64,000 nucleotides of DNA, taken from the sequence record MW650886.1; one strand, written 5' to 3'. The translations under genes were made by a program, and so were the position numbers. Origin of the DNA: Escherichia phage vB_EcoM-ZQ1. This document shows positions 2,077 to 61,900 of the stretch, piece after piece. Position 1 is the first letter of the stretch. Each line of letters begins with the position of its first letter. The notes below the pieces were generated by a model. That model did no database searches. It was given only the letters and a program-made list of their open reading frames with translations, and was not told the DNA's origin.

Positions 2077-2320
2077 TAGATCTTCTGCCTCTGGAACACT
2101 TCGGTCACAGTATAGTCTACATCACGACTTTGAGCTATACACAGTGCTCGACAAGCCCTCTATACAAAATATTTGTTTACCAGCCGTGTTGTGTTCGAAG
2201 TGGGCGAAGCTGTCCAAGAGATTCATGTAGCTGCGCATGTGACGGGGTAAAGATTTTGCTCATTGTCCTTTCCTTTCGGTGGATAATGAGCAAAATTATA
2301 TGCCTTTATTTTGTATTGAC

Positions 2321-2674: not shown

Positions 2675-2759
2675 GATGTTGTCCTCAGAAAAAGAAATCC
2701 CCCTGTATTTAAGGGGGATTGTAATCACTGCTTGACAAGAACCATCTTGATGGTTTCAC

Positions 2760-3065
2760 TTAGTCTTTGTCGGCAGACTTGCCAAAGAAGAATTCGAAAC
2801 CGTCATGGACAGCAACGACTTCCTGACCTTGGGAGATACCGTGAGTCTGGTCTGGGGTCAGCTTCACCTTGATGGTGTTGCCATCGGTTAACTCCAGGTT
2901 GTAGACATCCGCCTGATTGTCAGGAGTGATCTGGGTCACGGTAGCGCCGGAACACCACTGAGTGCCATCAGCTTGTTTGGTGATGGATACGGTCTTACCC
3001 TGGACACCAGCATGGGTCTGAGGTTTAGCGGCTTGTTCTTTAAAATATTCGATAAACGGTTTCAT
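2760..3065 (-). CDS. hypothetical late protein (101 aa)
   Basis: ORF preceded by canonical T4 late promoter TATAAATA. Confidence 0.5.
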   Translation of the reverse strand: MKPFIEYFKEQAAKPQTHAGVQGKTVSITKQADGTQWCSGATVTQITPDNQADVYNLELTDGNTIKVKLTPDQTHGISQGQEVVAVHDGFEFFFGKSADKD

Positions 3066-3089
3066 CTTAATCTCCTCGGGGATTTAAGT

Positions 3090-3097
3090 TATTTATA
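3090..3097 (-). promoter_or_regulatory. T4-type late promoter TATAAATA
   Basis: exact TATAAATA on minus strand ~25 bp upstream of ATG 3065. Confidence 0.55.
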
Positions 3098-3114
3098 AGC
3101 CCCCGAAGGGGCTT
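3097..3114 (-). terminator. stem-loop terminator
   Basis: aagcccc-gaa-ggggctt hairpin just downstream of gene 3122..6412. Confidence 0.5.
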
Positions 3115-3121
3115 TTGATGA

Positions 3122-6412: not shown

Positions 6413-6487
6413 TTTATATCTCCTGATTGAATTAATGGCGGTTTCTTCTAATTAGCGAAACCAAAAGGGAGCGTCAGCCCCCTTATC

Positions 6488-6823
6488 TTATTTTTGAACT
6501 TGGGCTACAGACATCGCCCAGAGCGGGAGGGTGTGGGGGTCCAGGGCTTCCAGTAGATATTCGACGCGCTCTGACATGATACCTTCAGGGAAGTTTACTT
6601 CTTCTGGTTCGTTGTTGGCCGTCCAACCCAATGTCAGTCCTTCAGCGTGATGGATGATATAAACGAAGTCGTCTGGTTCGTAGTCCTTTTCCATCAGGGC
6701 GAAGAAATCTTCCATTTCTTCGTCGGAGAAGTAGTAGATGCGAGGTACAGAGCCGTCAGCAAAGTGCTCAGCACCCTGGAAGGCAAACATGTCATCGGCG
6801 GTGAAGTTCTTGAGTTGTGTCAT
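6488..6823 (-). CDS. hypothetical early protein (111 aa)
   Basis: ORF with conserved leader ...GGAACTATATC-ATG and upstream early promoter. Confidence 0.55.
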   Translation of the reverse strand: MTQLKNFTADDMFAFQGAEHFADGSVPRIYYFSDEEMEDFFALMEKDYEPDDFVYIIHHAEGLTLGWTANNEPEEVNFPEGIMSERVEYLLEALDPHTLPLWAMSVAQVQK

Positions 6824-6871
6824 GATATAGTTCCTGCTTTTCAAGTTGGTGTCGTACTGCTTATGGAATGA

Positions 6872-6900
6872 AGTATAGGAAAGGATATTGAAGAAGTAAA
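6872..6900 (-). promoter_or_regulatory. T4-type early promoter (-35 TTTACT, -10 TATACT)
   Basis: TTTACT - 16 bp - TATACT on minus strand; same cassette as at 39977 and 50705. Confidence 0.5.
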
Positions 6901-6914
6901 GGGGCGAAAGCCCC
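6901..6914 (-). terminator. stem-loop terminator
   Basis: ggggcgaaagcccc hairpin flanked by T-rich sequence. Confidence 0.45.
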
Positions 6915-6929
6915 TTTTATTGAATTATT

Positions 6930-7568
6930 TTACGGCGTCGGATTCACAACCGGAATGTGGGATCGAATACCTGCGATGATGTCCTTCAGCCGAGGATTCC
7001 ATCCACCCACCAAACGGGGGAGAGCGATAGCGCCAGGCTGGACCAAAATGATGTCGCTGCCTGTGATATTGTGCTGAGGGAACTGAGCAAGGTACTGCTC
7101 CATGGCGACACCCTCATCAATCAGAACAGGACCGACATCAGATGACGCGTAGGTTGCACCCAGACCGTCAACGCCCCATGCCAAGATACCCCAGTCAGGG
7201 ATGTTGGCTTCAGATGTGATGGTGAATCCAAACACGGTGTTCAGCGAAGTAAAGGAATAGACATCGTGGGTGATGTCATACACCAGATACCCCTTGGCCA
7301 GCATATCGGCAAAGATCGCGTCCGTATCGCCAACAGCCGGAGTCGGCACAGTAAACAACAGCTCGCCATCAGGAGGAGCAGGATACGTGCCGAGGGCATA
7401 GAGGCACCATGCATCAATGCACTTCTTAATGAACGCCTCTGGCGCGACATAATCAGCAAGGCGAACCGTACCTGAGTACTCTGATACGATAATGCCTTCC
7501 TTCGCACCCTGTAGAGCAATGAAGACCAAGATATGTTCATATCCGGCCTGAGATGGAGTGATGTTCAT
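6930..7568 (-). CDS. hypothetical protein (212 aa)
   Basis: ORF; internal ATG 7568 overlaps stop of upstream gene. Confidence 0.5.
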   Translation of the reverse strand: MNITPSQAGYEHILVFIALQGAKEGIIVSEYSGTVRLADYVAPEAFIKKCIDAWCLYALGTYPAPPDGELLFTVPTPAVGDTDAIFADMLAKGYLVYDITHDVYSFTSLNTVFGFTITSEANIPDWGILAWGVDGLGATYASSDVGPVLIDEGVAMEQYLAQFPQHNITGSDIILVQPGAIALPRLVGGWNPRLKDIIAGIRSHIPVVNPTP

Positions 7569-8182
7569 TATCTTGTCCTCTTCAGTTTCTCTATTGTGTG
7601 CTTGTTCATGGCGATCACCTGAGGATCTACCTCGGAGATGGTCCGGCCTTCGAAAGACACACATTTCTGAAGATATTTAGCTTTCTTCACGACGTCGGCA
7701 GCATAAGCGTTCGATGCAGGATTACGGGCGAAGCCAGCATTGTAAGAGGAGAGGGATTTGCGGATATTCTGATTGTGATAGGTCAGCCAGAACTGCATCT
7801 CATCGAGGGCGGCTTGCGCGGCATATTCTTGGTCGGTCAGCAACTTTATGGCGACATTGGCATAGCACTTGCGATTCTTACAACCTTCGCGATCACCAAC
7901 TGTCTTCACCTTGTTCTGAAAGGCTCCCATGTTGGCCGCCTTGAGACCGTATCGCATTGACACTACATCTTCACCAGCGCGGCTCTCTCGCCAAGATATG
8001 GCGGCCAGAGTGTAGCCAAGATCTTGTGTCTTGCCTACGTGATAGGCGGTTGCCATCGTATTAAGTTGTTGCTCGGAGAAATTATAAACACATTGACTTG
8101 TATTTTGGGAAGCGTGCACATTCCCGCTGGCAATGGTAAAGGTCACGGACAAGGCCATGGCCTTCAACGTTGTCATCGTCAT
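7568..8182 (-). CDS. secreted protein, possible lytic transglycosylase-like
   Basis: N-terminal signal-peptide-like segment; weak ES...GAFQ motif. Confidence 0.4.
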   Translation of the reverse strand: MTMTTLKAMALSVTFTIASGNVHASQNTSQCVYNFSEQQLNTMATAYHVGKTQDLGYTLAAISWRESRAGEDVVSMRYGLKAANMGAFQNKVKTVGDREGCKNRKCYANVAIKLLTDQEYAAQAALDEMQFWLTYHNQNIRKSLSSYNAGFARNPASNAYAADVVKKAKYLQKCVSFEGRTISEVDPQVIAMNKHTIEKLKRTR

Positions 8183-8278
8183 GATGGCGTTCCTTATGTT
8201 TGTCGACTTGCAGCTCGATTGAGCCTCCTGACAGGGGTTAAAAGATAAAGGGCACGTGATATTTAGTGCCCTTCAGCC

Positions 8279-8563
8279 TCATTCGTAGATGAGGTGGTAG
8301 GATTCCTCGATACACTCCAGCCAGCCATAGACGAACTGTAGAGGGTCATCCCATGCCGTCTTGGTCGCGACGGTAAAGTTGCCGTCCAGGATCTGCATAT
8401 CTTGGTACTTGTTGAAAGCGAGTACAGCATCAACCACAATCAGGCCGCCCTGCTCAAGATAACGATTCGGAGTGACGGCCACTTGGTAACGAGGATTCCT
8501 GTGATTCCATATCTCCACAGCAATGTCACAGGAATCCTGAATTTCATCTTTGGTTTCTGACAT
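8279..8563 (-). CDS. hypothetical protein (94 aa)
   Basis: ORF in same-strand gene run. Confidence 0.45.
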   Translation of the reverse strand: MSETKDEIQDSCDIAVEIWNHRNPRYQVAVTPNRYLEQGGLIVVDAVLAFNKYQDMQILDGNFTVATKTAWDDPLQFVYGWLECIEESYHLIYE

Positions 8564-8873
8564 ACGTTTGTCTCAGGTGTTCAGTAAAGGATTTACCCAG
8601 CTTGCGGAATAGTTTAATACGACCAATGACTTTGACGTAAACATCTCCGTGGCAGGGGCGTGGCTTACACCAGCACCCCAATACCTTCCCGTCAAGCTCA
8701 AGGAGTTCATCCTCGGTGATATCCCCTTCAATCAGGCGCACATACAGGTCTTCTTCAAACAGTTCGATACAGACGCCTCGTCCATGGTCTTTGACCTCAA
8801 ATGGGTTCCCCCATTTACCAGGCCGACCAATGTAGACGTCATATGGCTCCTTCTTGAAGTGGACGACTTTCAT
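8544..8873 (-). CDS. DUF4326-like conserved phage protein
   Basis: HFKKEPYDVYIGRP..WGNPF ... CWCKP.PCHGDV motif pattern. Confidence 0.4.
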   Translation of the reverse strand: MKVVHFKKEPYDVYIGRPGKWGNPFEVKDHGRGVCIELFEEDLYVRLIEGDITEDELLELDGKVLGCWCKPRPCHGDVYVKVIGRIKLFRKLGKSFTEHLRQTYVRNQR

Positions 8874-8874
8874 T

Positions 8875-9033
8875 TCAGGATTTGACCTGCAAGTAGATAA
8901 CAGAACCAGACAGAGAACCCGAGATACCCCAGTGCTTTCAGGTAGTTTTTCCTTTCGACTTCACGAGAAAATGCAATGATGTCAATGATGCATGCAAAGA
9001 CCAGGATTGCGAGTTTAATTTGTTCGTAGTTCA
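8875..9033 (-). CDS. small hydrophobic protein (52 aa), not in ORF track
   Basis: ATG at 9033, hydrophobic core, fills gap between flanking genes. Confidence 0.3.
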
Positions 9034-9036
9034 TGA

Positions 9037-11382
9037 TCAATCCTTCTTGATAACTTCAGTCAGGCCGTTTCGCAGGCCGTAGCGAATGTTGTGTTGGAAG
9101 TATTCCTGGAACTCCTGTTCGCGCTGGCTAATAACAAACAGGTTGTTCCCGCCGAACTTATGCTTCAACATCTCAACCGATTCCTGCACCCCGCGCTCGC
9201 TCATGTTCTCAAGGATCTCGTCCAGCACGAACAGGTTACATTGTACAGACGCCTTGAGGTTAGCCACATCGCGCAGAGCTAATGTCACAGCCAGGTTCAG
9301 ACGACTGCGCTGGCCAGTAGACAGGGAGAAGATACTCTGTCCTTTGCGGCCTGCTGCGCTCATGGTGATCTCAAAGGTATCGTCAACAACGATGTCCAGG
9401 AACATGTTGAGGGCTTCAAGATACTCGTTGATCTTGCTATTGAGGAATGGCAGATACAGGGCGATGATACGCGCCTTGGTCTGGTCATCTTTCAAGAAGA
9501 ACAGCAGGTGCTGTAAGTCCTGGAGTTCTTGGTCGGCATCCTCGCGGCGCTGGTATAGATCCTCCAGTTCACCTTCCAACGCAGCGATGGAGTTCTCCAG
9601 GTCGGTGGTAGGTGTTGGCTTTACAGCCAGTTTACGCTCCAGATCGGCAATAGACGCCACGAGAGGAGCACGACGGGCTTTCAGCTCGGCGATCTTATCA
9701 TCGACGGCTTTAATCCCGCTAACGGCATTCTCTCGCGTCTGTTGCAGCGACGCAGTGATGTCTTCAAAACGAACGTTCATTGCCTTACGGATGTCAAGGA
9801 TCTTCTGTTGGCATTCACGGTTCAGCGAATTACACTCAATCGTGGCGACATCATGAAAACCTTGAATATCACGGCGCAGCTGCTTGATGTTGTCAACGAT
9901 TTCGTCGGCCTGCTTGCGCATTGCATCAAGTTCAGCATCCAACACAGCAATGTCAGCAACCAGCTTGTCGTCCTGGGCTTTGTGGTCATCGATCAACACA
10001 GTGACTTCGGCGGTGACTTTATCCAGCTGGTCCAGCTTCGCCTGTAGATCCTGAATCCGAGGATTGTACTCGCTTTCAATGCGCGCCTTGGTATCGTCGG
10101 ACACCAGTTGGGTACATGTTGGGCAAGTCCCCATGTCGTGGAAGCGCTTGATGGCCGACTGATGCCCCTCCATTTCAGTCTGGAACTTGATACGGAAGTT
10201 CTCACCCTGCTGGCGGCGCTGAATAGCAGCGTTCAGGGTGTCCAGGTTTGTGTTGCGCTTGGTGAGCAGGGTGTTCTTGCGTTCGGCCACTGTAAAGGCG
10301 CGGTCACGCAAGACCTGAAGTTCATGCTCCGCAGTAGACACTTCGATGCGCTCATAATCATCGGCCTTTTCCTGAGCGGCATCCTTCACCGCCTGGATCT
10401 TGGCATCAAAGTCTTTCTTGACAGCCTCGATCTCTACCATGGATTCATCATGCAGGCGGCTTTCCACCGTCTTCATTTCCTGGGTGGCTTCAAACTCCAC
10501 AGCCGTGAGGCGGGTGCGCTCCTCATTCTGCGCGGCAATGTCAGCATCCAGGGAATTCAGGGCTTCCTGTTGCTGTACAAGGATATCGGCCGACTGCTGT
10601 TGGATCAGGGCGTTGGATTGCTCGATCTGCTGAAGCTGCGTCTTCTTGTTGGTGTGGTCAACAACCTTCAGTGCGCATTCGTTAGATATAGAGTCCAGAG
10701 TTGCATTTGTCCTTTTGATGGCGGCCTTGACATCTTCGTTCATCAGGCTGAAGAAGCCCAAGTCCCAGATAGTCTCCACCATGGCGCGGCGGTCGGCTGT
10801 GTACATCTCCGTGAACGGAATGAACTTCTCTTTACCCAACACCAGAGAGTTCTCAAACATCTTCTGGTCTACACCGATGAGGTTCACGATGTACTTGTTC
10901 ATGTCGGCTTTGGCTGCTTCGTTATCGATCTGCAACCACTTGCCGTCCACCATCTGGTAGACTTCAACAAAGTCAGGTTTAATGCCACGGCGAACCTTCC
11001 ATTCGCTACCACGGCAGGCAAACTCCACCTCACCCACACATTCCTTGCGGCTCTGTGAGTTAACCAGGCCTGCCTTCTTCTCCTTCTTGCTGTATGTGTC
11101 GTTGTACAGTACGAAAAACAGCAGCCATACCAGCATCGTGGATTTACCCGCGCCGTTGTCATCAGACGTGACAAGGGTGGCCGGGTTGCGCTGATAATCA
11201 ATCTCCATGAACTGATTGCCGATGGAGCGGAAGTTCTTGGCGCGGCCTTTGCGGAAGGTCAGTTTGTGTGTAACAACGTTACGCACTTCAAATGGGACTT
11301 CAACCTCGACCGGGGCGTCGGCTTCCTTCAAAAGATTACCAAATTTGGTCAAGATATCTGTGCTCTGAGTCATGTTATGCAT
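9037..11382 (-). CDS. 46: recombination endonuclease ATPase subunit, gp46 / SbcC-Rad50-like
   Basis: Walker A GAGKST at N-terminus, coiled-coil middle, LSTGQRSR signature and D-E Walker B at C-terminus. Confidence 0.8.
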   Translation of the reverse strand: MHNMTQSTDILTKFGNLLKEADAPVEVEVPFEVRNVVTHKLTFRKGRAKNFRSIGNQFMEIDYQRNPATLVTSDDNGAGKSTMLVWLLFFVLYNDTYSKKEKKAGLVNSQSRKECVGEVEFACRGSEWKVRRGIKPDFVEVYQMVDGKWLQIDNEAAKADMNKYIVNLIGVDQKMFENSLVLGKEKFIPFTEMYTADRRAMVETIWDLGFFSLMNEDVKAAIKRTNATLDSISNECALKVVDHTNKKTQLQQIEQSNALIQQQSADILVQQQEALNSLDADIAAQNEERTRLTAVEFEATQEMKTVESRLHDESMVEIEAVKKDFDAKIQAVKDAAQEKADDYERIEVSTAEHELQVLRDRAFTVAERKNTLLTKRNTNLDTLNAAIQRRQQGENFRIKFQTEMEGHQSAIKRFHDMGTCPTCTQLVSDDTKARIESEYNPRIQDLQAKLDQLDKVTAEVTVLIDDHKAQDDKLVADIAVLDAELDAMRKQADEIVDNIKQLRRDIQGFHDVATIECNSLNRECQQKILDIRKAMNVRFEDITASLQQTRENAVSGIKAVDDKIAELKARRAPLVASIADLERKLAVKPTPTTDLENSIAALEGELEDLYQRREDADQELQDLQHLLFFLKDDQTKARIIALYLPFLNSKINEYLEALNMFLDIVVDDTFEITMSAAGRKGQSIFSLSTGQRSRLNLAVTLALRDVANLKASVQCNLFVLDEILENMSERGVQESVEMLKHKFGGNNLFVISQREQEFQEYFQHNIRYGLRNGLTEVIKKD

Positions 11383-12490
11383 CCAGTTTGTTCAGGCGTT
11401 GTTGGGCAGCATTATAGAAGTGCTCTGCCAGTTTACAGACATTGTCGGGGCGCTGAATGTTGTTCCCTGCGCGGATATCCTTCTTCAGGACTTCCACCGC
11501 ATCGGTCGCCACCATCTCTTCGGTGACCTCAACCTTCTCGGCAGCAACAGTAATCGTCCGGTCGATGAAGTTGTAGTCGATACACTTGCAGCGCTTCATG
11601 GCATCACAGAACTTTTCATAATGCTTAGCATTGTCGCGGTTCTGTACAATAACCTTAACGATTTGCCCTTCAATACCCAAGCCTGTGTTCAACCATTCCG
11701 GGTCGATCCAATTACCTTCTTCATCAGAGGACAACTTGGTGTAATCATATTCCACATAGCGGAACAGCGTCTGGTGCTCGGCGTTCGGGATAAAGATCTC
11801 ACCACCACGCATGTCGTCTACATAGAAGCCACGGTTAGTGCCGTCTTTGTAGTCTTCCCAGTTCAGGTGATATGGAGTCCCAATATATTGAATGTTACCT
11901 TCCATCGAACGGGTATGGAAATGCCCCGTGTCGACCCTGGTAAACTTGGAAAGCAGAGCAACGTCGATCTGACCGTGATCACAAGTAGAAGACTGGTACA
12001 TTTTGAACCCCGCCAGCTCCAGATGCGCAAAACAGTACTCGGCGTCTGTATCTTGTATCGCTTTAATAGACGCATCATAGTTCTCCTTGTTGATCCAAGG
12101 TAGCAGTAGAGTCTTGACACCCTCGATCATCACTTCGGTCGGTTCGCTGTAATAGCAGTACACATCCGGGTCGAGTTCGTTCAGGTAGGATGGCCAGTTG
12201 ATGCGGTTGGACTCTTCCAGGGTGATGTCATGGTTGCCCACGATGCCATTCCACTTGATACCAGCCGCTTTCAATGCAGGGGTGAGTTCATCCTTCAGCC
12301 AGTCTTTGTCACGACCGTACATGAATTTGCGGACATCAAACGTATCACCGAACTGCCAGACCTCTTTGATATCAGAGTCGGCAAGTTCAGGAATGAAATA
12401 ATTGATGAGATAGTTCTTGATGAAGTCGCGAACGTATCGAGAACCATTACGGCTCCCGATATGCAGATCACCAATTTTAGCAATCGCCAT
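11375..12490 (-). CDS. 47: recombination nuclease subunit, gp47 / SbcD-Mre11-like
   Basis: calcineurin-like phosphoesterase motifs (GDLH, GNHD); overlaps gp46 gene. Confidence 0.8.
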   Translation of the reverse strand: MAIAKIGDLHIGSRNGSRYVRDFIKNYLINYFIPELADSDIKEVWQFGDTFDVRKFMYGRDKDWLKDELTPALKAAGIKWNGIVGNHDITLEESNRINWPSYLNELDPDVYCYYSEPTEVMIEGVKTLLLPWINKENYDASIKAIQDTDAEYCFAHLELAGFKMYQSSTCDHGQIDVALLSKFTRVDTGHFHTRSMEGNIQYIGTPYHLNWEDYKDGTNRGFYVDDMRGGEIFIPNAEHQTLFRYVEYDYTKLSSDEEGNWIDPEWLNTGLGIEGQIVKVIVQNRDNAKHYEKFCDAMKRCKCIDYNFIDRTITVAAEKVEVTEEMVATDAVEVLKKDIRAGNNIQRPDNVCKLAEHFYNAAQQRLNKLDA

Positions 12491-13218
12491 TATTCTGTTT
12501 CTCCTTCGGTTTCGTCTAGGCCGAATTGGGTATTGCCGAAGTCCTGATCTAAATTTTCTTCGGCCTGCGCTGGTGTCGTATTCTTAGCCTGCGCCATGTA
12601 TTGAAGTATACCTTTCGCAATCTTTTTATTCGATTCTGCGAGACGAGCTGCCTCCACCTTCTCTCGTTCCTTCTGCCTTTGAGCGTCCTTTTTGTTCTCA
12701 AAGTTGCCGATACGTTCACGGAAGTCCATGCCAATTCCTGTAGCATCAACAAAGATCTCTTGTTGGAAGTCGGGGTCATCTGCCAGGCCTGCGAACCCAC
12801 CCGCCTCTTCAAATGAGCGCAATTTAATGTACGTGTGCTCTTCTTCGATGTTCAGTTTACGAGCAAATGAGCGATCAGCACACATGGTCACCCAAGAAAA
12901 GAAGTTGATCTTCCCTTTCTTACCGATGTGGTCGACGTCAAAGGTGTGGAGGTAACGCAGGATGTTGACGATTGCTTCAGAGACCATGTCTTCACGGAAG
13001 GGATAATCGCGATAGTTGTAGCGGGTACTCATCTTGGTGATGATGCGCTGGACCTGCAGAGCAACATAGTTGGGGATCTTTGGAAGCCTGGTGCCCTCAG
13101 CAAGTGCTTTCTTGCGGGCGGGGATCCAATCACGAAGGATACTAATGACACGCTCGTTGTCTTCGTCCGTGAAATATTTGACGACATTCTCCCCTCTGTC
13201 CACGAAGTTCATTCCCAT
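12490..13218 (-). CDS. 55: late-transcription sigma factor, gp55-like
   Basis: region-2-like segment (ILRDW ... YLHTFD) matching T4 gp55 pattern. Confidence 0.65.
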   Translation of the reverse strand: MGMNFVDRGENVVKYFTDEDNERVISILRDWIPARKKALAEGTRLPKIPNYVALQVQRIITKMSTRYNYRDYPFREDMVSEAIVNILRYLHTFDVDHIGKKGKINFFSWVTMCADRSFARKLNIEEEHTYIKLRSFEEAGGFAGLADDPDFQQEIFVDATGIGMDFRERIGNFENKKDAQRQKEREKVEAARLAESNKKIAKGILQYMAQAKNTTPAQAEENLDQDFGNTQFGLDETEGETE

Positions 13219-28178: not shown

Positions 28179-28292
28179 GATGTAATCTTCCTGTTTCAGT
28201 TCAAATGTGCGCCCCGTTTGCCAGGGCGCTTCGTTTAAGTGAGGTCAATATACGCTGGATTGAGTTATTGAAGAACGAAGTAAAGGGAATCT

Positions 28293-31420: not shown

Positions 31421-32381
31421 TGGTCAGGAAAAACACAGCATGCAGCCAGACATCGCCGACTTGACGGTGTTCAATCTGAGACTGACCACATACGCATACC
31501 AGATCCGGGATAGACTCATTCTGAACCAACATTTGCTTCTCTTTATCCTGTGGTACACAGAACTGGAAGAAGCGGGAATAGAAGTCTTCAGTGATATAGT
31601 TCTGGTTGTCGGTCACCCACTGCTTCATCCCAGCCCAGTCATTATCCTTCAACATATTCACCAACATACCCATATCGGCCGATTTTAACACAGCCAGTGC
31701 ACGTTCGTCGATCTTGCCGTAAGTGGTGACGTTATCCTGTAGAACACCCATGATGCGGCGGTTATCAGGGAAATGGCGCTTGACAATAGCAGCCAACACA
31801 GGAGGGTCATACTCAACACCTTCGCAGCGAAGGATTTCAGCACAGCGGCGCATGAACTGAAGTTTTACCTCATCAGCCTCAGCCTCATTCCAGATAAAGT
31901 CGATTTCACGGCAACGAGAGCGCAGAGGTTCGTTCACACGTTGCTTGGCGTTGGTGGTCAGGATGAATGAACAGTTCTTGGAGACCTTCTCCACAATACC
32001 CTTCAGCGACTCCTGTGCCGCCATAGACAGACGCTCTACTTCGTCGAGGATAACGACTTTGCGACCACCGAATACGCTCACACCAGTAGAGTACTGAATC
32101 ACGCGGTCACGGATAACGTCGATGCTGTTGTCCAGGGATGCGTTGATCATCAGTGGTTGCTTACAACCGATTTCATTACACACGGCCAGGGCGGAGGTAG
32201 TCTTGCCAGTACCAGGCTGAGGGGAGTAGAACAGCATAGACGGGATGTTGCCGTTGCCGCTGGTGATGTAGCCATGGATTTTAGCGCGGACGTCTTGAGG
32301 GATGATAATCTCGTCCAGGTTGTCAGGGCGGTACTTGTTTTCCCATGCGTACTGGTCGGAAACGATAGTAATATTAGACAT
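31392..32381 (-). CDS. 44: clamp-loader ATPase, gp44 / RFC-like
   Basis: RFC box WENKYRP, Walker A PQPGTGKTT, DEVER, SRC motif LRSRCREI. Confidence 0.85.
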   Translation of the reverse strand: MSNITIVSDQYAWENKYRPDNLDEIIIPQDVRAKIHGYITSGNGNIPSMLFYSPQPGTGKTTSALAVCNEIGCKQPLMINASLDNSIDVIRDRVIQYSTGVSVFGGRKVVILDEVERLSMAAQESLKGIVEKVSKNCSFILTTNAKQRVNEPLRSRCREIDFIWNEAEADEVKLQFMRRCAEILRCEGVEYDPPVLAAIVKRHFPDNRRIMGVLQDNVTTYGKIDERALAVLKSADMGMLVNMLKDNDWAGMKQWVTDNQNYITEDFYSRFFQFCVPQDKEKQMLVQNESIPDLVCVCGQSQIEHRQVGDVWLHAVFFLTNVMLNIKWK

Positions 32382-32461
32382 TTCAGCCTCGTGTAGAAGA
32401 ATCATTTCAAATAGGCGGGGAACGCCCCGCCCACACATTATAGCATCAGGCTGGAGATTGA

Positions 32462-33130
32462 TTACTCAATCTGTGCGCCGACGAAGTAATTGATCGTCGC
32501 GTCGGATGATTGGAAGTTCACCATCTGTAGATCAGCACAGGCACGCAAAGTGTAGTTGCCTTCGATCATTTTCAGGTTGGCAACATCCAGCGGCATTACG
32601 AAGTCCGGCAGCGCGGTTTCGCCCAGCTCAACAGTGTAGTTGTTGGAGTTGTCCAGGGTAGTAGTGGTTGCAACCAGGCGAGTTTTGCCACCCTGAGCAA
32701 CCAGGCGCACAGTCTTATGTCCGAGGGTAGAACAGGCGCGGGTCAGTTCTTTCATCTTCTCTGGAGTGATGATCGCTTCAAAGTCGACAGACGGCAGTTC
32801 AATAGTATCAGCCGGGACAACCGTGAGTTCTTTAGCAGAACGCCAGAATTGCAGCTGAGAACTTTCGCCCTTCAACAGGATGTAGTCCTGATGGAATTCG
32901 GCTTTGGCACCTTTAAAGGAAGGTAGGCGCTGGATAGCCAGAAGTTTGGTCAGGTCCAGAATCGGGAACTCAAACGGGAAGTCTTCTTCGATCTGCGCCA
33001 CGGCGATCACAGTAGAAGAATCATTAATACTGCGCAGCATCTTGCCCGGTGTCAGAACGATAGATGGGTTGATGGTCTCAAAGTTGGCCAGCAACTGAAG
33101 TGTACGTTCGGAGAGAGTGATCTCTTGCAT
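32462..33130 (-). CDS. 45: sliding clamp, gp45-like
   Basis: size 222 aa, N-terminal LQLLANFETINPSIVL resembles T4 gp45, synteny. Confidence 0.7.
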   Translation of the reverse strand: MQEITLSERTLQLLANFETINPSIVLTPGKMLRSINDSSTVIAVAQIEEDFPFEFPILDLTKLLAIQRLPSFKGAKAEFHQDYILLKGESSQLQFWRSAKELTVVPADTIELPSVDFEAIITPEKMKELTRACSTLGHKTVRLVAQGGKTRLVATTTTLDNSNNYTVELGETALPDFVMPLDVANLKMIEGNYTLRACADLQMVNFQSSDATINYFVGAQIE

Positions 33131-33239
33131 TTGTATGTATCCTCAAAATATAGTGGGGGTTCAAGTCATGTTTGACGCAATCTAGTATCGCTGTGTTTTG
33201 CTTATAGAACAAGTGGCAAATTGCGCTACGCGTTATTAA

Positions 33240-33257
33240 TAAATGCCTTCGGCATTT
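33240..33257. other. perfect hairpin aaatgcc-ttcg-ggcattt in noncoding region
   Basis: 7-bp stem, tetraloop. Confidence 0.5.
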
Positions 33258-33262
33258 ATGGA

Positions 33263-33309
33263 CTTTATTAAAGATAATAACCTTTATTAAAGATAATAAT
33301 CTTTATTAA
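33263..33309. repeat. three iteron-like direct repeats (CTTTATTAAAGATAATAA period 18 bp)
   Basis: two full copies plus partial third in the largest noncoding gap. Confidence 0.7.
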
Positions 33310-33342
33310 TCCTATTCGCTTCGCTCATAAAACAAATACTCG

Positions 33343-33372
33343 TTGTTCGCTAACGCTCACAACTCGTATAAT
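33343..33372 (+). promoter_or_regulatory. sigma70-like promoter (TTGTTC - 18 - TATAAT)
   Basis: plus-strand -35/-10 pair upstream of plus-strand gene 33492..33863. Confidence 0.35.
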
Positions 33373-33491
33373 ACCACGCCATTGTTCAACAAGAAAGCAG
33401 TTTTTATTCAACAGCAAAATTAATTTATTTGGTCTAAACATGCACGCGAAATAATATGTATGTCATGTTAACCAACATACGAGAGTAATAT

Positions 33492-33863
33492 ATGAAACAG
33501 TTCGTAGGATTATACGCAGTTGGGTGTAGTAAACCAGACGCCAAGCTCACCACAGATCAATTTACCACAGGCACCCCAGTTTATCTGACACAGCTGGCGT
33601 CAGACAAGAACTTACCATCGGAGCCGCGATTTGTCCCTCTGGGGTTGATGACAGGTCTGAAAGTTGGTCTGTATGTCGGTGTGGTGACGTTTGAAAATGG
33701 CGTCGAAGCGAAAGTTCTGCCATTCAAATTGGGCAGCGAAGAAATGCTGAAGGATACGATCAGTGAACACCTGAACTCACAATGTCTGGCTTCTCTGGAC
33801 AAATTGTTCGGTGTAGTAACTGATGAAGGCGAGGCCACCCCCGCCTATGTGAATCAAGATTAA
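33492..33863 (+). CDS. hypothetical protein (123 aa)
   Basis: plus-strand ORF with GAGAG RBS. Confidence 0.45.
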   Translation: MKQFVGLYAVGCSKPDAKLTTDQFTTGTPVYLTQLASDKNLPSEPRFVPLGLMTGLKVGLYVGVVTFENGVEAKVLPFKLGSEEMLKDTISEHLNSQCLASLDKLFGVVTDEGEATPAYVNQD

Positions 33864-35368
33864 TCGTGATTACCCAGCGCCACCTTCATGAACTCCACAG
33901 GGTGGCGCTCTGCCAGGTAAAACTTGTAACGCTCGTGAGAGTGCCTAAGAGCGTGGTTCGTGCTGGCGTTGTACGATGCATCATCCACTAAGTCCCATAT
34001 CCACGCGACGTCCTTAGAGGAGTGCTGACGCATCAGACGACCCAATGTCTGTATGACGCGGATATATGACTTGCTCGGGTGTGCCAGTACAAGGTGGTGT
34101 AGCTTCTTGATCGACACTCCCTGCTGCATTGTCCCGTATGAAGCCAACAACGTGATATCTTCTCCATCCTCCATCGCTTTCTGTATGCGGCGGCGGTCTT
34201 CGATCTTCACTTCCCCGTTGATGACAAACACGTTGGGCTTGACTGCGCTCAGCATATCGTACACAACCATCATGTGGGCGTCAATACGCTCGAACATGAT
34301 GGCCACGTTCCCTTTCAGATTCAGTGCCATCTTGGCGATCAGTTCGTTGCGGGACTGGTGTGTGATAAGGTATTCTATTTCCTTGGAATAATCCCCGTCC
34401 AGACCAACAGCATCCGCCGGAGTGTGCTTCAGCTGAATCATCTTCACTTTGATGTCAGTGGCGTATCCGAGATTGATAAGATCGCGAGCCGTGATGATCT
34501 TATGGTACGCCCCGAAGTGAGCCACCACCTGAAGCCCGGCAACTTTGGTATTCGCCAGCGTACCTGTAACCCCCAAGCGCTGGTCGGCATAGATGCAGTT
34601 GTTTAGGATGTAAGACAGTTTCTCAGACTTGGAGGTGTGCACTTCATCCACCACGATATCACCGAACTGGTGGAACCATTCCTTCGGTTGATCTTGAATG
34701 CCTTGCCATGTACTGATGACGATTGGTTTGCTGATCTCCTTTGTCGCGCCCTCAAAAATCAGCTGGGTGTTAACAACGGGCTTCCAATCACTGCCATGCG
34801 CATACTCTTCGAAGTTGTCGTACAGCTGAGTGACTAAGTGGATTGACGGCACCACGATAAGCGTCTTCAGAGGACTTTCGAGAGCTTCTCTGCGCCGCCT
34901 GTAGTACCGCGCCATGACATACAGAATAAAGGACTTACCGGCACTCGTAGCCAGTTCACAGACGCATCTGGTTTGACGCATAGCCTTGGCGATGGTGTCG
35001 TACTGGTAGTCACGAGTCTCGGCATCGATATATTCGTGATTTTCGGTGCGGATCTTTGGATGCAGACTGTCGATGAAGTCACGGATTTCTTCATCTGGGA
35101 TGTCCTGAATGTACTTCAGCGCCGGATCCAGTTCAATGGTGTATCCGTTGTTCTTACAGAACTTAAATACCTCAAACAGCAGACCGATATCGATTAGACC
35201 AGATGACTTGGTAAATAGGCGGACAACCCCGTCCCATTTAGAGAAGGGGTTGGGAACGAAGTTCGGGTCTTCGAATTTGAAGTAGTCATTAAGTTCTTCC
35301 CTGATAGAAAGATCTGCGATGCAACGCATGCGGACTTCGTTAACCTTAACAATCTGAATGTCTGCCAT
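33860..35368 (-). CDS. uvsW: SF2 helicase, UvsW-like
   Basis: Walker A TSAGKS, DEVH box; ~500 aa; neighbour of UvsY-like gene as in T4. Confidence 0.6.
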   Translation of the reverse strand: MADIQIVKVNEVRMRCIADLSIREELNDYFKFEDPNFVPNPFSKWDGVVRLFTKSSGLIDIGLLFEVFKFCKNNGYTIELDPALKYIQDIPDEEIRDFIDSLHPKIRTENHEYIDAETRDYQYDTIAKAMRQTRCVCELATSAGKSFILYVMARYYRRRREALESPLKTLIVVPSIHLVTQLYDNFEEYAHGSDWKPVVNTQLIFEGATKEISKPIVISTWQGIQDQPKEWFHQFGDIVVDEVHTSKSEKLSYILNNCIYADQRLGVTGTLANTKVAGLQVVAHFGAYHKIITARDLINLGYATDIKVKMIQLKHTPADAVGLDGDYSKEIEYLITHQSRNELIAKMALNLKGNVAIMFERIDAHMMVVYDMLSAVKPNVFVINGEVKIEDRRRIQKAMEDGEDITLLASYGTMQQGVSIKKLHHLVLAHPSKSYIRVIQTLGRLMRQHSSKDVAWIWDLVDDASYNASTNHALRHSHERYKFYLAERHPVEFMKVALGNHD

Positions 35369-39585: not shown

Positions 39586-39644
39586 GGTAAAGTCCTCTAT
39601 TTGTAGGGGATAGGGTATGCGGTTAACATACCCCGTTCAAAGGT

Positions 39645-39926
39645 TTAGAACAAATGCTCGCCTTCCACATGGTATGCTAACACGCCGTCAGAACATTCAA
39701 AATACATGTTATCATATTCCCACAGAGCGGTGATTTCTTCACCCTGGCAAACCACCGAAAACTTCGGCTGGCTGGCCTTAACTGGAAATTTTTCAGGGGA
39801 AGAGATTGGGGTGAATTTGGCATTTCTGACGGCCATACCAACAAATTGCTGCAATGTTACTTTGTAACGAGAGTGGGTGATAGTGCCAGCATTCAGGGCT
39901 TCGATCAATTGCGCTTTAGTTGTCAT
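39645..39926 (-). CDS. hypothetical early protein (93 aa)
   Basis: conserved leader ...GGAACTATATC-ATG and early promoter. Confidence 0.5.
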   Translation of the reverse strand: MTTKAQLIEALNAGTITHSRYKVTLQQFVGMAVRNAKFTPISSPEKFPVKASQPKFSVVCQGEEITALWEYDNMYFECSDGVLAYHVEGEHLF

Positions 39927-39976: not shown

Positions 39977-40009
39977 GTATACGGGGTTTATTGAAGAAGT
40001 AAACCCCGT
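39977..40009 (-). promoter_or_regulatory. T4-type early promoter within a 10-bp-stem hairpin (PeSL-like)
   Basis: TTTACT - 16 bp - TATACT; -35 lies in hairpin acggggttta / taaaccccgt. Confidence 0.5.
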
Positions 40010-50704: not shown

Positions 50705-50733
50705 ATTATACGTGAGTTATTGAAGAAGTAAAG
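50705..50733 (-). promoter_or_regulatory. T4-type early promoter (-35 TTTACT, -10 TATAAT)
   Basis: TTTACT - 16 bp - TATAAT. Confidence 0.5.
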
Positions 50734-50767
50734 TAATTCAATAAAATAATCTGGGAAAAATTTAAAA

Positions 50768-58983: not shown

Positions 58984-61900
58984 TTATGCCAGAGCAATCA
59001 AACGGAAATCTTTGAATGACGGCGGTGCTATGCGGTTGCCTCTGACCAGCAGGCGGATCTTCAGGCCAACGAAAGGATTGGTGCTCTCTACAGTCTTGTC
59101 ATACTCATATTCGAAGAATGTAGAACCGTCATTGACCAGAGGGGATGTCGGTGTCACAGTTTCCCATGCCACATTATCCATCTCCTGACCTGCGCGCAGC
59201 AGTTTAACCTGCACAGTCATTGAAGACTGAGAAGGTAGCATCGCGCCGAAGTATTGCTTCAGAGTGGTGCAAGGGTTATCGAATCCGATATCCTTGGTCA
59301 CATAGCTGAACACATCTTCAAACGGATCCACACCGTAGGTGTTGAAGATGATAGTGAAATCATCACCGTCGATCATTGGAGCCGTGTAGACATTACTCTC
59401 GTTGCGAGTCATGGTTGCACGAACCTGGAAGTCGCCCACCTGACGATAGATACCTTCCGTCGGCAGAGACACGTCCGTATCGGATTCGAACTCAACCCAA
59501 TCAGAGAATGAGTTGGAGGTCGCATCGCGATAGCGGTATTCCAGTTTCAACACAGATCCTTCTAGGGCTGAATTGGTGACGCTTGCGTAGAACATGTCTA
59601 CCAAGTAGTTGCCTAGGAAAGAAGCCGCTTCGCCACCAATCTGACCGTCGGAGTCGGCGTTGGAACTCAGAACGAATTTGAACGTCGTGAACGTCGCATC
59701 AGTCACAGTGTGTTGGGCGTTCAGCTGCTCAGGAGTGAAACCGCAACCACCCGTCAACCCAGAAAGAGTAACACTTTCACCCGCAGTCAGGCCATGCCCC
59801 GGAGCGTACACAGTAACAGTTGAAGAACCGTTGACACATTTCACGGTGTTCAGACCCAGAGGGCGGATCTTCGGACCGACTTTAGCATCGAAGGTCACGA
59901 TGTTTGAACCAGCGGAGAAGTTACAGCGATATACACGGAACTTCATATCGGCAGTCTGGTTTGGAGTCCAGGTCGTACCATTTGAAGATGTGAAGAACAC
60001 GCCAGTGTACGGCTGTTTGGCAATGAACTCGTTGGTCAGCAAGTTCTTCTTACCCATCTCTGCGATGTATGCGTTGTAGTCCTGAGTGTTGGCCAAGAGA
60101 ACAATCGCGAACTCAGTCTGCGCCTGCAGATACACAGGATAATCAAACTTGAACATCGTTGGCACAGAAGAGTCTGTGGAGGTGGAAACTTCTGATGGAT
60201 TCAGAGTCTTACGAGTGACGACAGTCGTCGCTGGCAGACCATTGCTCATCTCACGGATTTCCAGAGTGATCGGGATATCACGGGACTTGGTGGAGAAGAA
60301 GACTTCAATCCCTTCGATGTATTCGCCGCCGATATTGGTGGCAACCATGAAGGACTGGGCGATAGGATCTTTCCACTTCGCGACTTCAACCGTCTCTGTT
60401 TTGTTTTCCGTAGACTTGGTCGCAGTGTATCCCAGGACGCGGGTGTTGACATAAGTCTTCTGGATGCCCTGTTTCTTTCCGAAGGACTTATGAACAGCCT
60501 CGGCATTGGTCAGGGTATCATCAGCAGACTTACTGTCCACAGGACTGTCAGTCAGACGGAAGACGTTGTCACCCGTGTTAAACTTGATAGTCTCGTTCTG
60601 AGGAACCGCAAACACACCTTTGATGTTACCGTTGGCATCAGTGTTCAACGCACCACCCAGTACACCACCGTTTGGGGTACAGTACGCGCTCACATCACGC
60701 CCAGAGAAGAACGGATACACACGAGTGAACGGACGCAGCCCTGTGGCTTCGAAGTTGATGTTCGTTTTGCGCATGTATGGGATAACCTGCGTTTCAACGA
60801 TCTGCTCGCCAGTCAGGGTAGTGGTCGTCTTGTCGGTGTACGTGTACGTGGTGACGTCACGGGTAGACACAGTCGTGCGGTAGCGATAGCCCCACCATAC
60901 ACCACCTGCACCATGCGGTTCCCACACACGCTCAGACACGGACACAGTACGCCATGTGCCATACACAGAACCTTCTTTGATCGCACCACGGGTGTTGATC
61001 GTTTCGTTGATCACCCGTGGAGTAACATAGTAGTTCTCAAACCAGTAATCAGTAGTTGGGTTCAGCTTCAAGAAACCTTCCCAGTTGAACACCGCATACG
61101 GGTTCACGTTGATGGTCGTGGTTGCATAGTCCTGGCGGACAGAGATCTCACGGGTGTAGTTGCATACAACCATGCCATCCTGAACGTTGTTCCAACCGAC
61201 TGGCGTCAGGTCAATCGCGTTCTGCTGAACAAACGGGCGTAGGCGACCATTGTCGGTGTCGATTGAACCCACCCAGTCTGCAGACAAATCGTCGATCAGA
61301 CGGAAGTCTTTGAACGGGTCTGCTGCGATACCGTTCTTGAAGCGCGGGTTGCCAGTAATTGGATCGAACACCTGTTGTGACATCGCCGAGGATTCCAGCT
61401 GAGACAGTGAGGTGTAATATTCGACATTCGAGATACGGGTCTCCAGTTTACCGATATCACGCATCGTGTAGCGGCGGTTGTCGATAGTACGAATCTGGAT
61501 GTCGTCAATGTTGGCCGTGTATGGTGGGATCATCAATTCATACAGACGCATACCGTTGTCTGGGATCGCAGGGGAAGCCAGGTTGTTGGAACTCACACCA
61601 CGAGCAACGTTGAACACACCGTTGTCTGCCAGATACACAGCATCAATACGAGGCAGATAGTACTCTGCATCTAGGATGATCGCGGTGTTCGGGCGAACCA
61701 TGTCCGTGTCAGACGCTCCGCTGGTGATCTTGGGACGGAAGTCCAGACTGTCGGCCAACCCATACACAGTACCAGAACTGGATGAAACATAGTTCGGGAT
61801 GTCTGGGTAGTTGATGGACGAATAGGAGTCCGCTGTAAAGAAATCACCAGAGCTGTGAGCGAAATACTGATACACCACCGTGAACGTCCCTGAAATGGCT

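Follow-up and report, generated by a model that had tools for sequence, protein, structure and literature searches.

The longest noncoding gap in the DNA analyzed here, a stretch of 64,000 nucleotides from Escherichia phage vB_EcoM-ZQ1 (MW650886.1; hereafter the window), is probably a divergent transcription-control region that is conserved across the phage family and carries a slippage-prone, AT-rich spacer. The phage is an Agtrevirus-like member of the Ackermannviridae (ViI-like phages), a family widely used in biocontrol and therapy against Salmonella, E. coli O157, Shigella, Klebsiella and Dickeya, and one for which we know of no experimentally mapped replication origin, promoter class or regulatory protein. 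We propose that the gap is made of two independent halves parted by the spacer, a plan that would be common to ViI-like phages. In the left half, a predicted sigma-70-type promoter with a conserved leader, P(−), would drive gp45, in a transcription unit ending at its own strong terminator, and a conserved palindrome lies about 60–80 bp upstream of the predicted P(−) start. In the right half, tandem promoters P1 and P2 would serve a divergent gene of 123 aa, with conserved short direct repeats around them. The features of the locus are collected in Table 1.

Table 1. Features of the gap and of its immediate neighbors (positions are those of the window; A2 and A4 are the alignments described in the text).
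Feature	Position	Strand	Sequence or size	Remarks
Terminator after gp45	32410–32431	minus	GGGCGGGG-CGTT-CCCCGCC, then TATTT	strong intrinsic terminator, from the sequence
gp45, sliding clamp gene	32462–33130	minus	222 aa	ORF list and relatives' annotation
Gap	33131–33491		361 bp	between gp45 (minus) and the 123-aa gene (plus)
Block A	33131–33183	minus		gp45 leader and ribosome-binding region; nearly invariant or invariant columns in A2 and A4
P(−)	33212–33207 and 33189–33184	minus	TTGTTC, 17-nt spacer, GATACT	predicted; faces gp45
Palindrome/hairpin	33239–33259	both	ATAAATGCC-TTC-GGCATTTAT	9-bp stem, 3-nt loop
AT-rich tandem repeat	33263–33309		unit CTTTATTAAAGATAATAAY	19-bp period, 2.5 copies; TRF score 87
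30-nt box	33302–33333	plus	TTTATTAATCCTATTCGCTTCGCTCATAAAAC	upstream of P1
P1	33343–33348 and 33367–33372	plus	TTGTTC, 18-nt spacer, TATAAT	predicted
Direct repeats	33382–33418	plus	TTGTTCAACAAGAAA and TTATTCAACAGCAAA	22 bp apart; found in the window and Vi01
P2	33429–33457	plus	TTGGTC-17-TAATAT	predicted
123-aa gene	33492–33863	plus	phrog_4255	divergent from gp45

Gene context and conservation of the gap

The gap is the longest stretch of the window without an open reading frame of at least 90 aa, the runner-up measuring 325 bp, and at the 150–300 bp scale it has the highest A+T content of the window. An earlier note on this DNA, made from the sequence alone, was right on both points when it described the largest noncoding gap as an AT-rich region upstream of the sliding-clamp gene. 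The clamp assignment is accompanied by a weak match to Pfam gp45-slide_C (E 0.002, under Pfam's curated cut-off), and in the annotation of the closest genome, RPN242, the gene order is gp45, gp44, gp62 and a RegA-like translational repressor. Since a strong terminator stands directly after gp45, this gene is largely its own transcription unit. The homologous terminator in phage Ag3 is Torf165, with −18.8 kcal/mol (genome paper supplement, PMC3121705), and the Menlow record has a terminator annotated at the equivalent place after gp45.

On the other side of the gap, the 123-aa gene is followed by the gene for the UvsW helicase, with a 4-nt overlap between its 3′ end and the end of uvsW. The 123-aa protein is ~40% identical between genera and is thus fast-evolving. 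We considered that it might be a DNA-binding regulator of the gap and rejected this, its AlphaFold model (pLDDT 79) being without a helix-turn-helix; comparison of the model with the PDB gave no match with E below 0.4. An origin of the gap from host DNA was also rejected, as BLAST against 5,426 E. coli genomes gave no match, and so was a coding role for the five small ORFs in the gap (22–44 aa), against which single-base indels within the conserved blocks speak.

The locus was compared with about 25 distinct relatives, which represent five genera, using alignments A2 and A4 (21 and 13 sequences, respectively), and the arrangement of genes around the gap was matched in four further metagenomic lineages. 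A scan of viral contigs with the P1-core pattern returned 26 loci. The ViI-like loci among them carry the landmark motifs of the gap, and ten loci without flanking landmark motifs were set aside as probable chance matches, the one that was inspected, L027, being unrelated. The gap has 78.5% identity to Vi01, the gp45 coding sequence 75.5% and the 123-aa gene 58%. Other short gaps of the phage are also 70–96% identical to Vi01, so that conservation alone is not exceptional. The gap splits into two kinds of sequence, a variable repeat and spacer versus family-conserved blocks, and the latter are single-copy in the genome. Block A, which contains GAGGA (TCCTC at 33140–33144 on the plus strand) and the nearly invariant TTCAAGTCATGTTTGACGCAA, is unique across about 140 kb of RPN242.

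The constraint on the region lies at the level of sequence and not of RNA structure. Folding of the leaders, the P1 block and the hairpin on both strands, with RNAalifold and as single sequences, gave no covariation-supported helix (z −0.4 to −2.4), the leaders in particular having no helices supported by RNAalifold. A search of the gap against Rfam 15 (E ≤ 10) yielded only chance-level hits, the best two scoring 19 and 13.9 bits (E 3.4 and 8.3) and falling well short of the gathering cut-offs.

Predicted promoters, conserved boxes and the hairpin

All three predicted promoters have a −35/−10 spacing of 16–18 bp and an appropriate placement upstream of their genes, P(−) sitting 54 nt before the gp45 ATG. 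The plus-strand TTGTTC-18-TATAAT promoter that the earlier note had picked out is present as P1 and hardly varies across the five genera, its spacer CTCACAACTCG included; neither the window nor 140 kb of RPN242 has a second copy of its core 15-mer. The comparison agrees with the divergent promoters that the note had also named: in A2 and A4, across the five genera, the gp45-facing P(−) and the second plus-strand promoter, P2, show a footprint in which the hexamers are kept and the spacers vary. In P2, the T, A and final T of the −10 hexamer and TTGGTCTAAAC are conserved, the other spacer bases vary, and an A/T-rich stretch (33415–33428) precedes the promoter. P(−) and P2 have in common an extended −35 element, TTGKTCTAWA, of which the window has 4 copies (0.47 expected) and 140 kb of RPN242 have 6 (about 1.0 expected); four of the six RPN242 sites are located in gaps and face genes, with TAnnnT 17 nt downstream.

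The −35 hexamers of the three predicted promoters match the consensus at only 3/6 positions, which accounts for P1 going unreported in a generic sigma-70 scan. The same scan reported neither P(−) nor P2, and by its count promoter-like sites are not overrepresented in the gap (1 versus 2.0 expected). The strand of the left promoter is ambiguous by sequence, as a plus-strand TTCAAG-17-TAGTAT is readable over the same conserved bases. A search of the literature found no start-site or expression data for ViI-like phages, and the Ag3 genome paper gives no promoter for orf165 or orf166 (PMC3121705). Two other assignments were examined and rejected. The 'middle promoter' annotated in the gap of LIMEstone1 was predicted by similarity to the T4 consensus (PMC3296691), and its TGCT motif is missing from the window. 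Membership of P1 in the TTTACTTCTTCAATAA early-promoter family of this phage fails on the −35 and the leader, both of which differ.

Two pairs of short direct repeats lie around P1 and P2. The 30-nt box includes the first copy of TTCGCT(N1–2)CGCTCA, the second copy of which (33346–33362) overlaps the P1 spacer, and the TCGCTTCGCTC of the box is nearly invariant in A2 and A4. A 30/33-nt copy of the box is found in a second gap of RPN242 (45163–45131, minus strand); paralogy of the whole gap with this second large gap was rejected, as the box alone is significantly shared. The other pair, TTGTTCAACAAGAAA/TTATTCAACAGCAAA, lies just downstream of the predicted P1 start and about 45–80 bp upstream of that of P2. 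Its first member contains the palindrome TTGTTCAACAA, and in A2 and A4 the TGTTCA, AAG and TTTTTA of the pair do not vary. The simplest interpretation of the conserved short direct repeats around P1 and P2 is that they are putative sites of protein binding to the DNA. That both repeat pairs, the P1 spacer and TTGGTCTAAAC vary so little exceeds the needs of a plain sigma-70 promoter, which counts against the reading we prefer.

Two strongly conserved promoters for a fast-evolving 123-aa gene are an odd combination. The transcripts or the DNA of the right half may serve another purpose than this gene.

The earlier note had also reported a perfect hairpin with a 7-bp stem and a ttcg loop. The hairpin is there, with the longer stem and shorter loop given in Table 1, one G of the stem having been counted as loop. 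As RNA it folds with −9.3 kcal/mol on the plus strand and −8.8 kcal/mol on the minus strand (z about −2.2 versus shuffles), a modest value that is far weaker than those of the G+C-rich terminators of the phage. Its arms are identical in Agtrevirus, Limestonevirus, Kuttervirus and four metagenomic lineages, with TTC or TGAC as the loop, and show no compensatory changes in A2 or A4; Taipeivirus and Miltonvirus have different, weak palindromes at this position. A terminator scan does report the hairpin, on the plus strand. We nevertheless rejected it as an intrinsic terminator: it has three G–C pairs and about −9 kcal/mol, sits between divergent genes, and is followed by GGACUUUAUU on the plus strand and UAAUAACG on the minus strand, whereas the real terminators of the phage have 5–6 G–C pairs and clean T runs.

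In T4, the product of the clamp gene serves both replication and late transcription. The conserved elements described here are real conserved signals upstream of the clamp gene and offer landmarks for engineering these phages, base-level coordinates now being at hand for three candidate promoters, the conserved palindrome, two repeat pairs and the 30-nt box.

The 19-bp repeat and the AT-rich spacer

An array of repeats had been described as three copies spaced by 18 bp. We find the array, with a period of 19 bp and 2.5 copies: two full units and a 9-bp partial third, CTTTATTAA, joined head to tail without a spacer. The 18-mer of the repeat occurs twice and its 9-mer three times, against 0.03 and 0.21 expected, respectively, when the window is shuffled with its dinucleotides preserved; neither is found elsewhere in the 64 kb. 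Among phages that are 91–98% identical over the locus, the copy number is 1.5, 2.5 or 3.5, and the three states are seen in independent isolates. Ag3, LIMEstone1, AV101, fGh-Ecl02, EspM4VN and L047 have 1.5 copies, the window, CECAV_050, LHE287, L041 and, judged by gap length, RPN242 have 2.5, and A221 has 3.5. The repeat occupies the syntenic position, in variable copy number, only in Agtrevirus and Limestonevirus. In the metagenomic L045, L046 and L048 and in Kuttervirus, Taipeivirus and Miltonvirus the motif is missing despite alignable flanking blocks, and the position of the repeat is taken by 15–39 bp of unrelated AT-rich filler in L045, L046, L048, Kuttervirus, Taipeivirus and Kevin.

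The earlier note had called the repeats iteron-like, had suggested that their conservation in relatives be examined, and had named a lack of such conservation as one half of what would refute the idea, the other half being no replication initiation at the site. In that comparison they proved unconserved, and the iteron reading is not supported, given a copy number that varies from 1.5 to 3.5 in the closest relatives and the absence of the motif from sister lineages. To judge from its sequence and distribution, the 19-bp repeat looks like a by-product of the instability of the spacer and not like initiator-binding iterons, which removes a tempting false lead. The 1.5-copy state amounts to a 9-bp direct repeat, CTTTATTAA...CTTTATTAA, in the sublineage of the window, and replication slippage at this direct repeat would add or remove 19-bp units to give 1.5, 2.5 or 3.5 copies. 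Slipped-strand variable-number tandem repeats are similar in gaining and losing whole units between otherwise near-identical genomes, and in a putative ancestral state that is a short direct repeat flanking one unit; the range of copy number in the gap, 1.5–3.5, is small in comparison. For Agtrevirus isolates, the repeat may be of use as a simple marker in strain typing.

One 19-bp unit corresponds to about 1.8 helical turns, and the spacing between the two halves of the gap ranges from 15 to 75 bp across relatives. Neither phasing nor the distance between the halves is therefore kept, so the halves must work independently. The spacer is also the least stable duplex in the 64-kb window, the nearest-neighbor dG of the 50-bp segment 33266–33315 being −48.9 against a mean of −70.2 (sd 4.2). 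The least stable 100-bp segment (33233–33332) lies upstream of P1, and 33415–33514 ranks fourth; the G+C content downstream of P1 is about 28–36%. Because of this low stability, the spacer fits a role in DNA unwinding as well as that of a passive spacer. On our best reading of the alignments, its sequence is unconstrained and would need only to be AT-rich.

Alternative readings and likeness to known systems

In the iteron origins of plasmids and lambdoid phages, a Rep or O protein acts on direct repeats of 17–22 bp beside an AT-rich region. The 19-bp length of the repeat and its AT-rich surroundings recall such origins, whereas the gap has two full copies only (one to three in relatives), which are extremely AT-rich and unconserved, and no adjacent initiator gene or DnaA boxes. 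The suggestion that iterons next to replication genes mark an origin or regulator-binding sites thus finds neither repeats conserved in relatives nor an annotated initiator; none of the Rep/O/DnaA type is annotated in about 140/155 kb of RPN242, according to the depositors' annotation, in which many proteins are 'hypothetical'. Scanning of 33131–33491 detected no exact-consensus DnaA box, no IHF, GATC, CRP or Fis-like site, no MotA box and no T4 late promoter TATAAATA; for GATC, about 1.9 sites are expected by density. Cumulative GC/AT skew has no extreme or inflection exactly at the gap and merely changes slope somewhere near 32 kb.

The gap might still be a replication origin of the T4 kind, resembling either oriE, with repeats and an early promoter, or oriF/oriG, in which case the P1 transcript would form R-loops in easily melted DNA and prime the leading strand, and UvsW would later remove these R-loops. 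We consider this distinctly unlikely. It draws on unique, strongly conserved promoters flanked by 100-bp segments that rank first and fourth in the window for low stability, on the single-copy state of the conserved blocks, on divergent transcription, and on the replication genes around the gap, with uvsW and uvsY next door. T4 origins indeed lie near points of transcriptional divergence, and UvsW unwinds their R-loops (PMC3016281). T4 oriE has evenly spaced direct repeats of unknown role, the function of which is unproven even in T4, and requires an early promoter (PMC3016281). What the two loci share is evenly spaced noncoding direct repeats near an early-type promoter, here predicted, and near replication genes. 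The oriE repeats, however, recur in the syntenic regions of related phages (PMC3016281), whereas the 19-bp unit, with 1.5–3.5 copies, is unconserved and absent from sister lineages; unit length and sequence differ as well, and no repE-like genes adjoin the gap. For oriF (uvsY) and oriG (gene 34), a promoter and an A+T-rich unwinding element of no particular sequence suffice (PMC3016281), and the gap resembles them in having a good −10 beside very easily melted DNA, with uvsW and uvsY close. Their promoters are MotA-dependent, whereas the gap contains no MotA box (TGCTTNA), and P1, P2 and P(−) carry a −35-like TTGKTC. In addition, the least stable DNA is here upstream of P1 and not downstream, the sequence downstream of P1 is conserved although the T4 unwinding element needs no sequence, and no skew inflection is centered on the gap. 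AT-richness and promoters are, moreover, a property of any control region. We give little credence to the proposal that the gap is the, or an, early replication origin of ViI-like phages, iteron-free, primed by an R-loop and shut off by UvsW. Divergent transcription would then drive negative supercoiling into the least stable DNA, and the P1 or P(−) transcript would form an R-loop in the melted DNA, from which synthesis would be primed. On this proposal the 30-nt box and the other conserved boxes would act in loading or regulation, and the 19-bp expansions would be tolerated length changes of the unwinding element. A literature search for Ackermannviridae transcriptomes or origin mapping found nothing relevant.

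Two further readings assign a function to the repeat or to RNA. Each repeat unit contains internal palindromes (CTTTA-T-TAAAG and TTATTA-N4-TAATAA). The array, which can be read as an imperfect inverted repeat of 22 nt, is situated ~70–117 bp upstream of the P1 start and ~86–132 bp upstream of the P(−) start. Together with the persistence of three copy-number states in independent isolates, this is consistent with a binding array for a nucleoid-type or phage DNA-bending protein, the copy number of which would tune the divergent promoter or promoters. We nonetheless think such an array unlikely, for the motif is missing from lineages that keep all flanking elements, the gap has no IHF or Fis consensus, a 19-bp step shifts the helical phase and would usually break bending-dependent activation, and variation among near-identical genomes is just what neutral slippage would produce. 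It is very unlikely that the gap encodes a small RNA, either as a plus-strand transcript ending at the hairpin and GGACUUUAUU or as an RNA gene in the right half. The plus-strand call of the terminator scan agrees with such a transcript, the possible promoter TTCAAG-17-TAGTAT is about 60 nt upstream of the hairpin, and the copy of the 30-nt box in the other gap stands beside a candidate structured RNA and, there too, follows a hairpin and a T-rich run. The hairpin, however, is weak when set against the real terminators and has no compensatory changes, neither strand of the gap has a conserved fold or an Rfam family, and conservation from the −35 of P(−) to the hairpin is only moderate.

As a divergent transcription-control region, which is the reading we prefer, the gap can be set beside the region of T4 gene 45, a gene with middle and late promoters and RegA control. 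The T4 upstream gene, rpbA, is co-oriented with gene 45, whereas the upstream gene here is divergent and unrelated by Pfam, and the gap has no TATAAATA late promoter and no sequence similarity to T4. The likeness to the T4 45-44-62-regA cluster resides in the same gene order and in a clamp gene with its own promoters, here predicted, directly upstream.

A probable divergent control region upstream of the sliding-clamp gene

The 361-bp gap at 33131–33491 is the longest ORF-free stretch in the window (ORF threshold of at least 90 aa) and, at the 150–300 bp scale, tops it in AT content. Over 1.6 kb at this locus, the window is 96–98% identical to LHE287, YX22, AV101, RPN242 and others (Agtrevirus-related Escherichia, Salmonella and Enterobacter phages), 93% to Shigella phage Ag3, about 90% to Dickeya Limestonevirus phages and 60–80% to about 100 Salmonella Kuttervirus phages. 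Because of these identities, we assign the window to the ViI-like phages of the Ackermannviridae. Gene order around the gap is the same in RPN242, the closest annotated genome. Collinearity with RPN242 is broken at the left end of the window (1–13000), where homologues of gp46, gp47 and gp55 lie about 1.2 kb further right, implying that near-identical phages differ here by an insertion or deletion. The area of a 40-bp tandem duplication, the top-scoring repeat of the window, also differs from RPN242.

Positions of features in and around the gap and of related sites in the window
Feature	Position	Strand	Remarks
Terminator	32410–32431	−	GGGCGGGG-CGTT-CCCCGCC; between gp45 and gp44; TATAAT just upstream
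gp45 sliding clamp	32462–33130	−	leftwards: gp44, gp62, RegA-like translational repressor (−)
Left promoter (predicted)	TTGTTC 33212–33207, GATACT 33189–33184	−	hexamers conserved, 17 intervening bases freely variable
Hairpin	33239–33259		ATAAATGCC-TTC-GGCATTTAT
Tandem repeat	33263–33309		
TTCGCT(N1-2)CGCTCA pair	33315, 33346		31 bp apart (42 bp in the Miltonvirus Kevin)
P1 (predicted)	33343–33372	+	conserved over its whole length, with 11 spacer bases (CTCACAACTCG) invariant
TTGTTCAACAAGAAA / TTATTCAACAGCAAA pair	33382, 33404		22 bp apart, also in Vi01
P2 (predicted)	TTGGTC 33429–33434, TAATAT 33452–33457	+	hexamers conserved, spacer mostly variable
123-aa hypothetical gene	33492–33863	+	beyond it UvsW helicase, nuclease, UvsY (−)
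TTGKTCTAWA site	39644–39653	−	TAnnnT 17 nt downstream; gene-facing
Early promoter-plus-leader family	6885–6900, 39988–40003, 50717–50732	−	weaker at ~705–723, 28265–28280
Tandem duplication	62897–62977		2.0 copies, 97% matches, TRF score 155; overlaps start of 1336-aa ORF (58984–62994, −)

The 123-aa protein matches no Pfam family and was assigned to PHROG 4255, a group without functional annotation. Its predicted model (pLDDT 79), which matches no PDB entry, suggests a small alpha/beta domain with a disordered tail. The protein evolves fast, retaining ASLDKLFG (residues 100–107) and the C-terminal EGEATPAYVNQD, at which the disordered acidic tail (to residue 123) ends. The T4 DNA polymerase C-terminus reads EKASLDFLFG, in which LDFLF is the gp45 clamp-binding motif (PMC6212786). 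Since ASLDKLFG matches the polymerase ASLDFLFG at seven of eight residues, the small gene may code for a protein that binds the clamp and is expressed divergently from the clamp gene. In some Kuttervirus records its product is labelled 'clamp loader subunit'. Vibrio phage K476 lacks the small gene, and gp45 there has uvsW directly upstream.

A variable 19-bp repeat beside a conserved hairpin

The earlier note had described repeat copies spaced by 18 bp. A tandem repeat is present, with a measured period of 19 bp, 2.5 copies and 96% matches (Tandem Repeats Finder score 87). It is real, beyond chance; its 18-mer appears twice (0.03 expected) and its 9-mer three times (0.21 expected), with no further occurrence of either in the rest of the window. 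Copy number was read in 16 genomes, from the DNA lying between the hairpin and the conserved block that follows it. One full unit plus a partial one (37 bp) was found in Ag3, LIMEstone1, AV101, fGh-Ecl02 and EspM4VN, two full units (56 bp) in the window, CECAV_050 and LHE287, and three (75 bp) in A221. Across the 1.6-kb locus AV101 shares 97.6% identity with the window and A221 96.6%, so repeat number shifts over very short evolutionary time.

Four further metagenomic lineages (L045–L048), obtained via small-gene homologues, show very little change in the hairpin and the right-hand blocks; L047 carries 1.5 copies, and the other three have unrelated AT-rich DNA of similar length instead of the repeat. 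At the same position Kuttervirus has 38–39 bp of another AT-rich sequence, Taipeivirus 15–32 bp and Miltonvirus 36 bp. AT-richness is the sole property retained in this segment among the relatives compared. In the 1.5-copy form, the 9-bp direct repeat CTTTATTAA stands on both sides of 10 bp, an arrangement that, to judge from its sequence, is ideally suited to slipped-strand gain or loss of 19-bp units.

The hairpin, previously given a 7-bp stem and a ttcg loop, is present with nine pairs and a three-base loop; its folding energy is about −9 kcal/mol for each strand (z about −2.2). Agtrevirus, Limestonevirus, Kuttervirus and the four metagenomic lineages all have the same arms, around a loop of TTC or TGAC, and no compensatory changes occur among the aligned relatives; Taipeivirus and Miltonvirus have weak palindromes of other sequence at this position. 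A terminator role is unlikely, since the hairpin is far weaker than the phage's real terminators and is placed between divergent genes. A reasonable guess is a palindrome bound by a dimeric protein, about 60–80 bp upstream of the gp45 start. In K476, a distant relative (gp45 36% identical), a hairpin of the same form was seen at L018 2203–2488 (AAATGGC-GAC-GCCATTT, for AAATGCC-TTC-GGCATTT in the window); there uvsW, a strong terminator, the hairpin and gp45 follow one another in one orientation.

Promoter-like sites and conserved boxes

Beyond the repeat, the gap is mostly conserved in blocks (three alignments across relatives, A1, A2 and A4). The whole gap is 78.5% identical to Vi01; the gp45 coding sequence reaches 75.5%, the small gene 58% and its protein about 40%. 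The gap's figure should be weighed against the phage's other short gaps, which are likewise 70–96% identical to Vi01. Consensus folding of both strands of the gap gave no helix with covariation support, an Rfam search of it found no family, and it has no similarity to E. coli DNA. The constraint is thus on primary sequence, which points to DNA recognition by RNA polymerase and other proteins and not to structured RNA.

The TTGTTC-18-TATAAT sequence noticed earlier is indeed there, as the predicted promoter P1. A generic promoter scan of the gap found no excess of consensus-like sites and missed P1 because of its weak −35. At the P2 −10, the conserved positions are exactly T, A and the last T; P2 is immediately preceded by an A/T-rich stretch. 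The 50 nt between the left promoter and the gp45 start codon, ribosome-binding site included, are nearly invariant. From these patterns we infer promoter activity and bound proteins at the gap. The left promoter would mainly serve gp45, because a strong terminator, also predicted in Ag3 (PMC3121705), follows this gene. Placed between gp45 and gp44, this terminator would set the clamp apart from the clamp loader, either as separate transcription units or through an attenuator.

An extended −35, TTGKTCTAWA, is common to the left promoter and P2. It was found four times in the window (0.47 expected), and 140 kb of RPN242 contain six occurrences where about 1.0 would be expected; of these six, four lie in gaps, face a gene and have TAnnnT 17 nt downstream. 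Members at 39644–39653 (−) in the window and at RPN242 49945 (−), in L049, each face a gene with TAnnnT at this distance, which suggests a small promoter class including the gp45 promoter and P2. The left promoter, P1 and P2 are unlike the phage's early promoter-plus-leader family (TTTACTTCTTCAATAA, 6–7 nt, TATAMT, leader ...CATAAGCAG...GGAACTATATG), which has three clear copies in the window (four matches against 0.56 expected), usually directly after a terminator hairpin, and corresponds to 'Porf138' of the Ag3 paper (PMC3121705).

Both direct-repeat pairs are conserved. The first TTCGCT(N1-2)CGCTCA copy is part of a 30-nt box, TTTATTAATCCTATTCGCTTCGCTCATAAAAC, of which one other large RPN242 gap, upstream of the baseplate hub gene, holds a copy identical at 30 of 33 bases, likewise with a hairpin and a T-rich run ahead of it; all other conserved gap blocks are single-copy in the approximately 90% of the RPN242 genome covered. 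The second gap, L049 44898–45260 (minus strand, 363 bp), is conserved in 269 phage records; it carries the 30-nt box followed by a core, ACCGCCCTATGCGGGCAGCACCATTCCAATGCCATGGAGGCATAAGGGCGAGG, and has a bidirectional terminator at its end. The core has compensatory changes among three genera (three sequences compared), and this gap may hold a structured RNA of about 230 nt, for which Rfam has no family.

Two proposed promoter modules or a possible replication origin

We conclude from the comparisons that the gap is most likely an ordinary control region, though well conserved, whose AT-rich repeat is unstable. It would consist of two independent promoter modules, the left driving clamp expression and the right using two promoters in tandem, with conserved sites for putative further factors, to express the small gene; between the modules would lie an AT-rich spacer, free in sequence and loosely constrained in length. 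The distance between modules is 15–75 bp across the family, and 19-bp units alter both distance and helical phase, which argues against cooperation through fixed geometry and for the repeat as a slippage product. The observation in the earlier note holds as a whole; of its interpretation, the divergent promoters are supported, by evidence that is comparative throughout, and the iterons are not, the repeats being unconserved among close relatives. What novelty is left lies in the conserved boxes, which lack an explanation, and in a possible origin function.

A replication origin at the gap would have a precedent in T4. There, oriE depends on an early promoter and contains direct repeats at even spacing, of unknown role; oriF and oriG are made up solely of a promoter with an A+T-rich unwinding element; origins tend to sit where transcription diverges, and origin R-loops are removed by UvsW (PMC3016281). 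Predicted promoters, divergence and replication-gene neighbours are all present here, and the gap contains the least stable DNA of the window (50-bp dG −48.9, about 5 sd from the mean of −70.2), but every one of these features is equally expected of a busy control region. With the repeats unconserved, MotA box, DnaA box, IHF site and GATC all absent from the gap, no initiator gene annotated in RPN242 (about 90% covered) and no extreme of cumulative skew at the gap, we consider an origin here improbable. From position 1 to about 32 kb, cumulative GC skew declines steadily, reaching −361, and then stays roughly flat; the change near 32000–34000 is one of slope and not an extreme. Apart from the gap, AT content at the 50-bp scale peaks at two spots of the window, 717–766 (10% G+C) and 50717–50766 (18% G+C); both are terminator/promoter junctions of the early promoter-plus-leader family, and 725–746 also scored as a TTTTCAAAAA tandem repeat.
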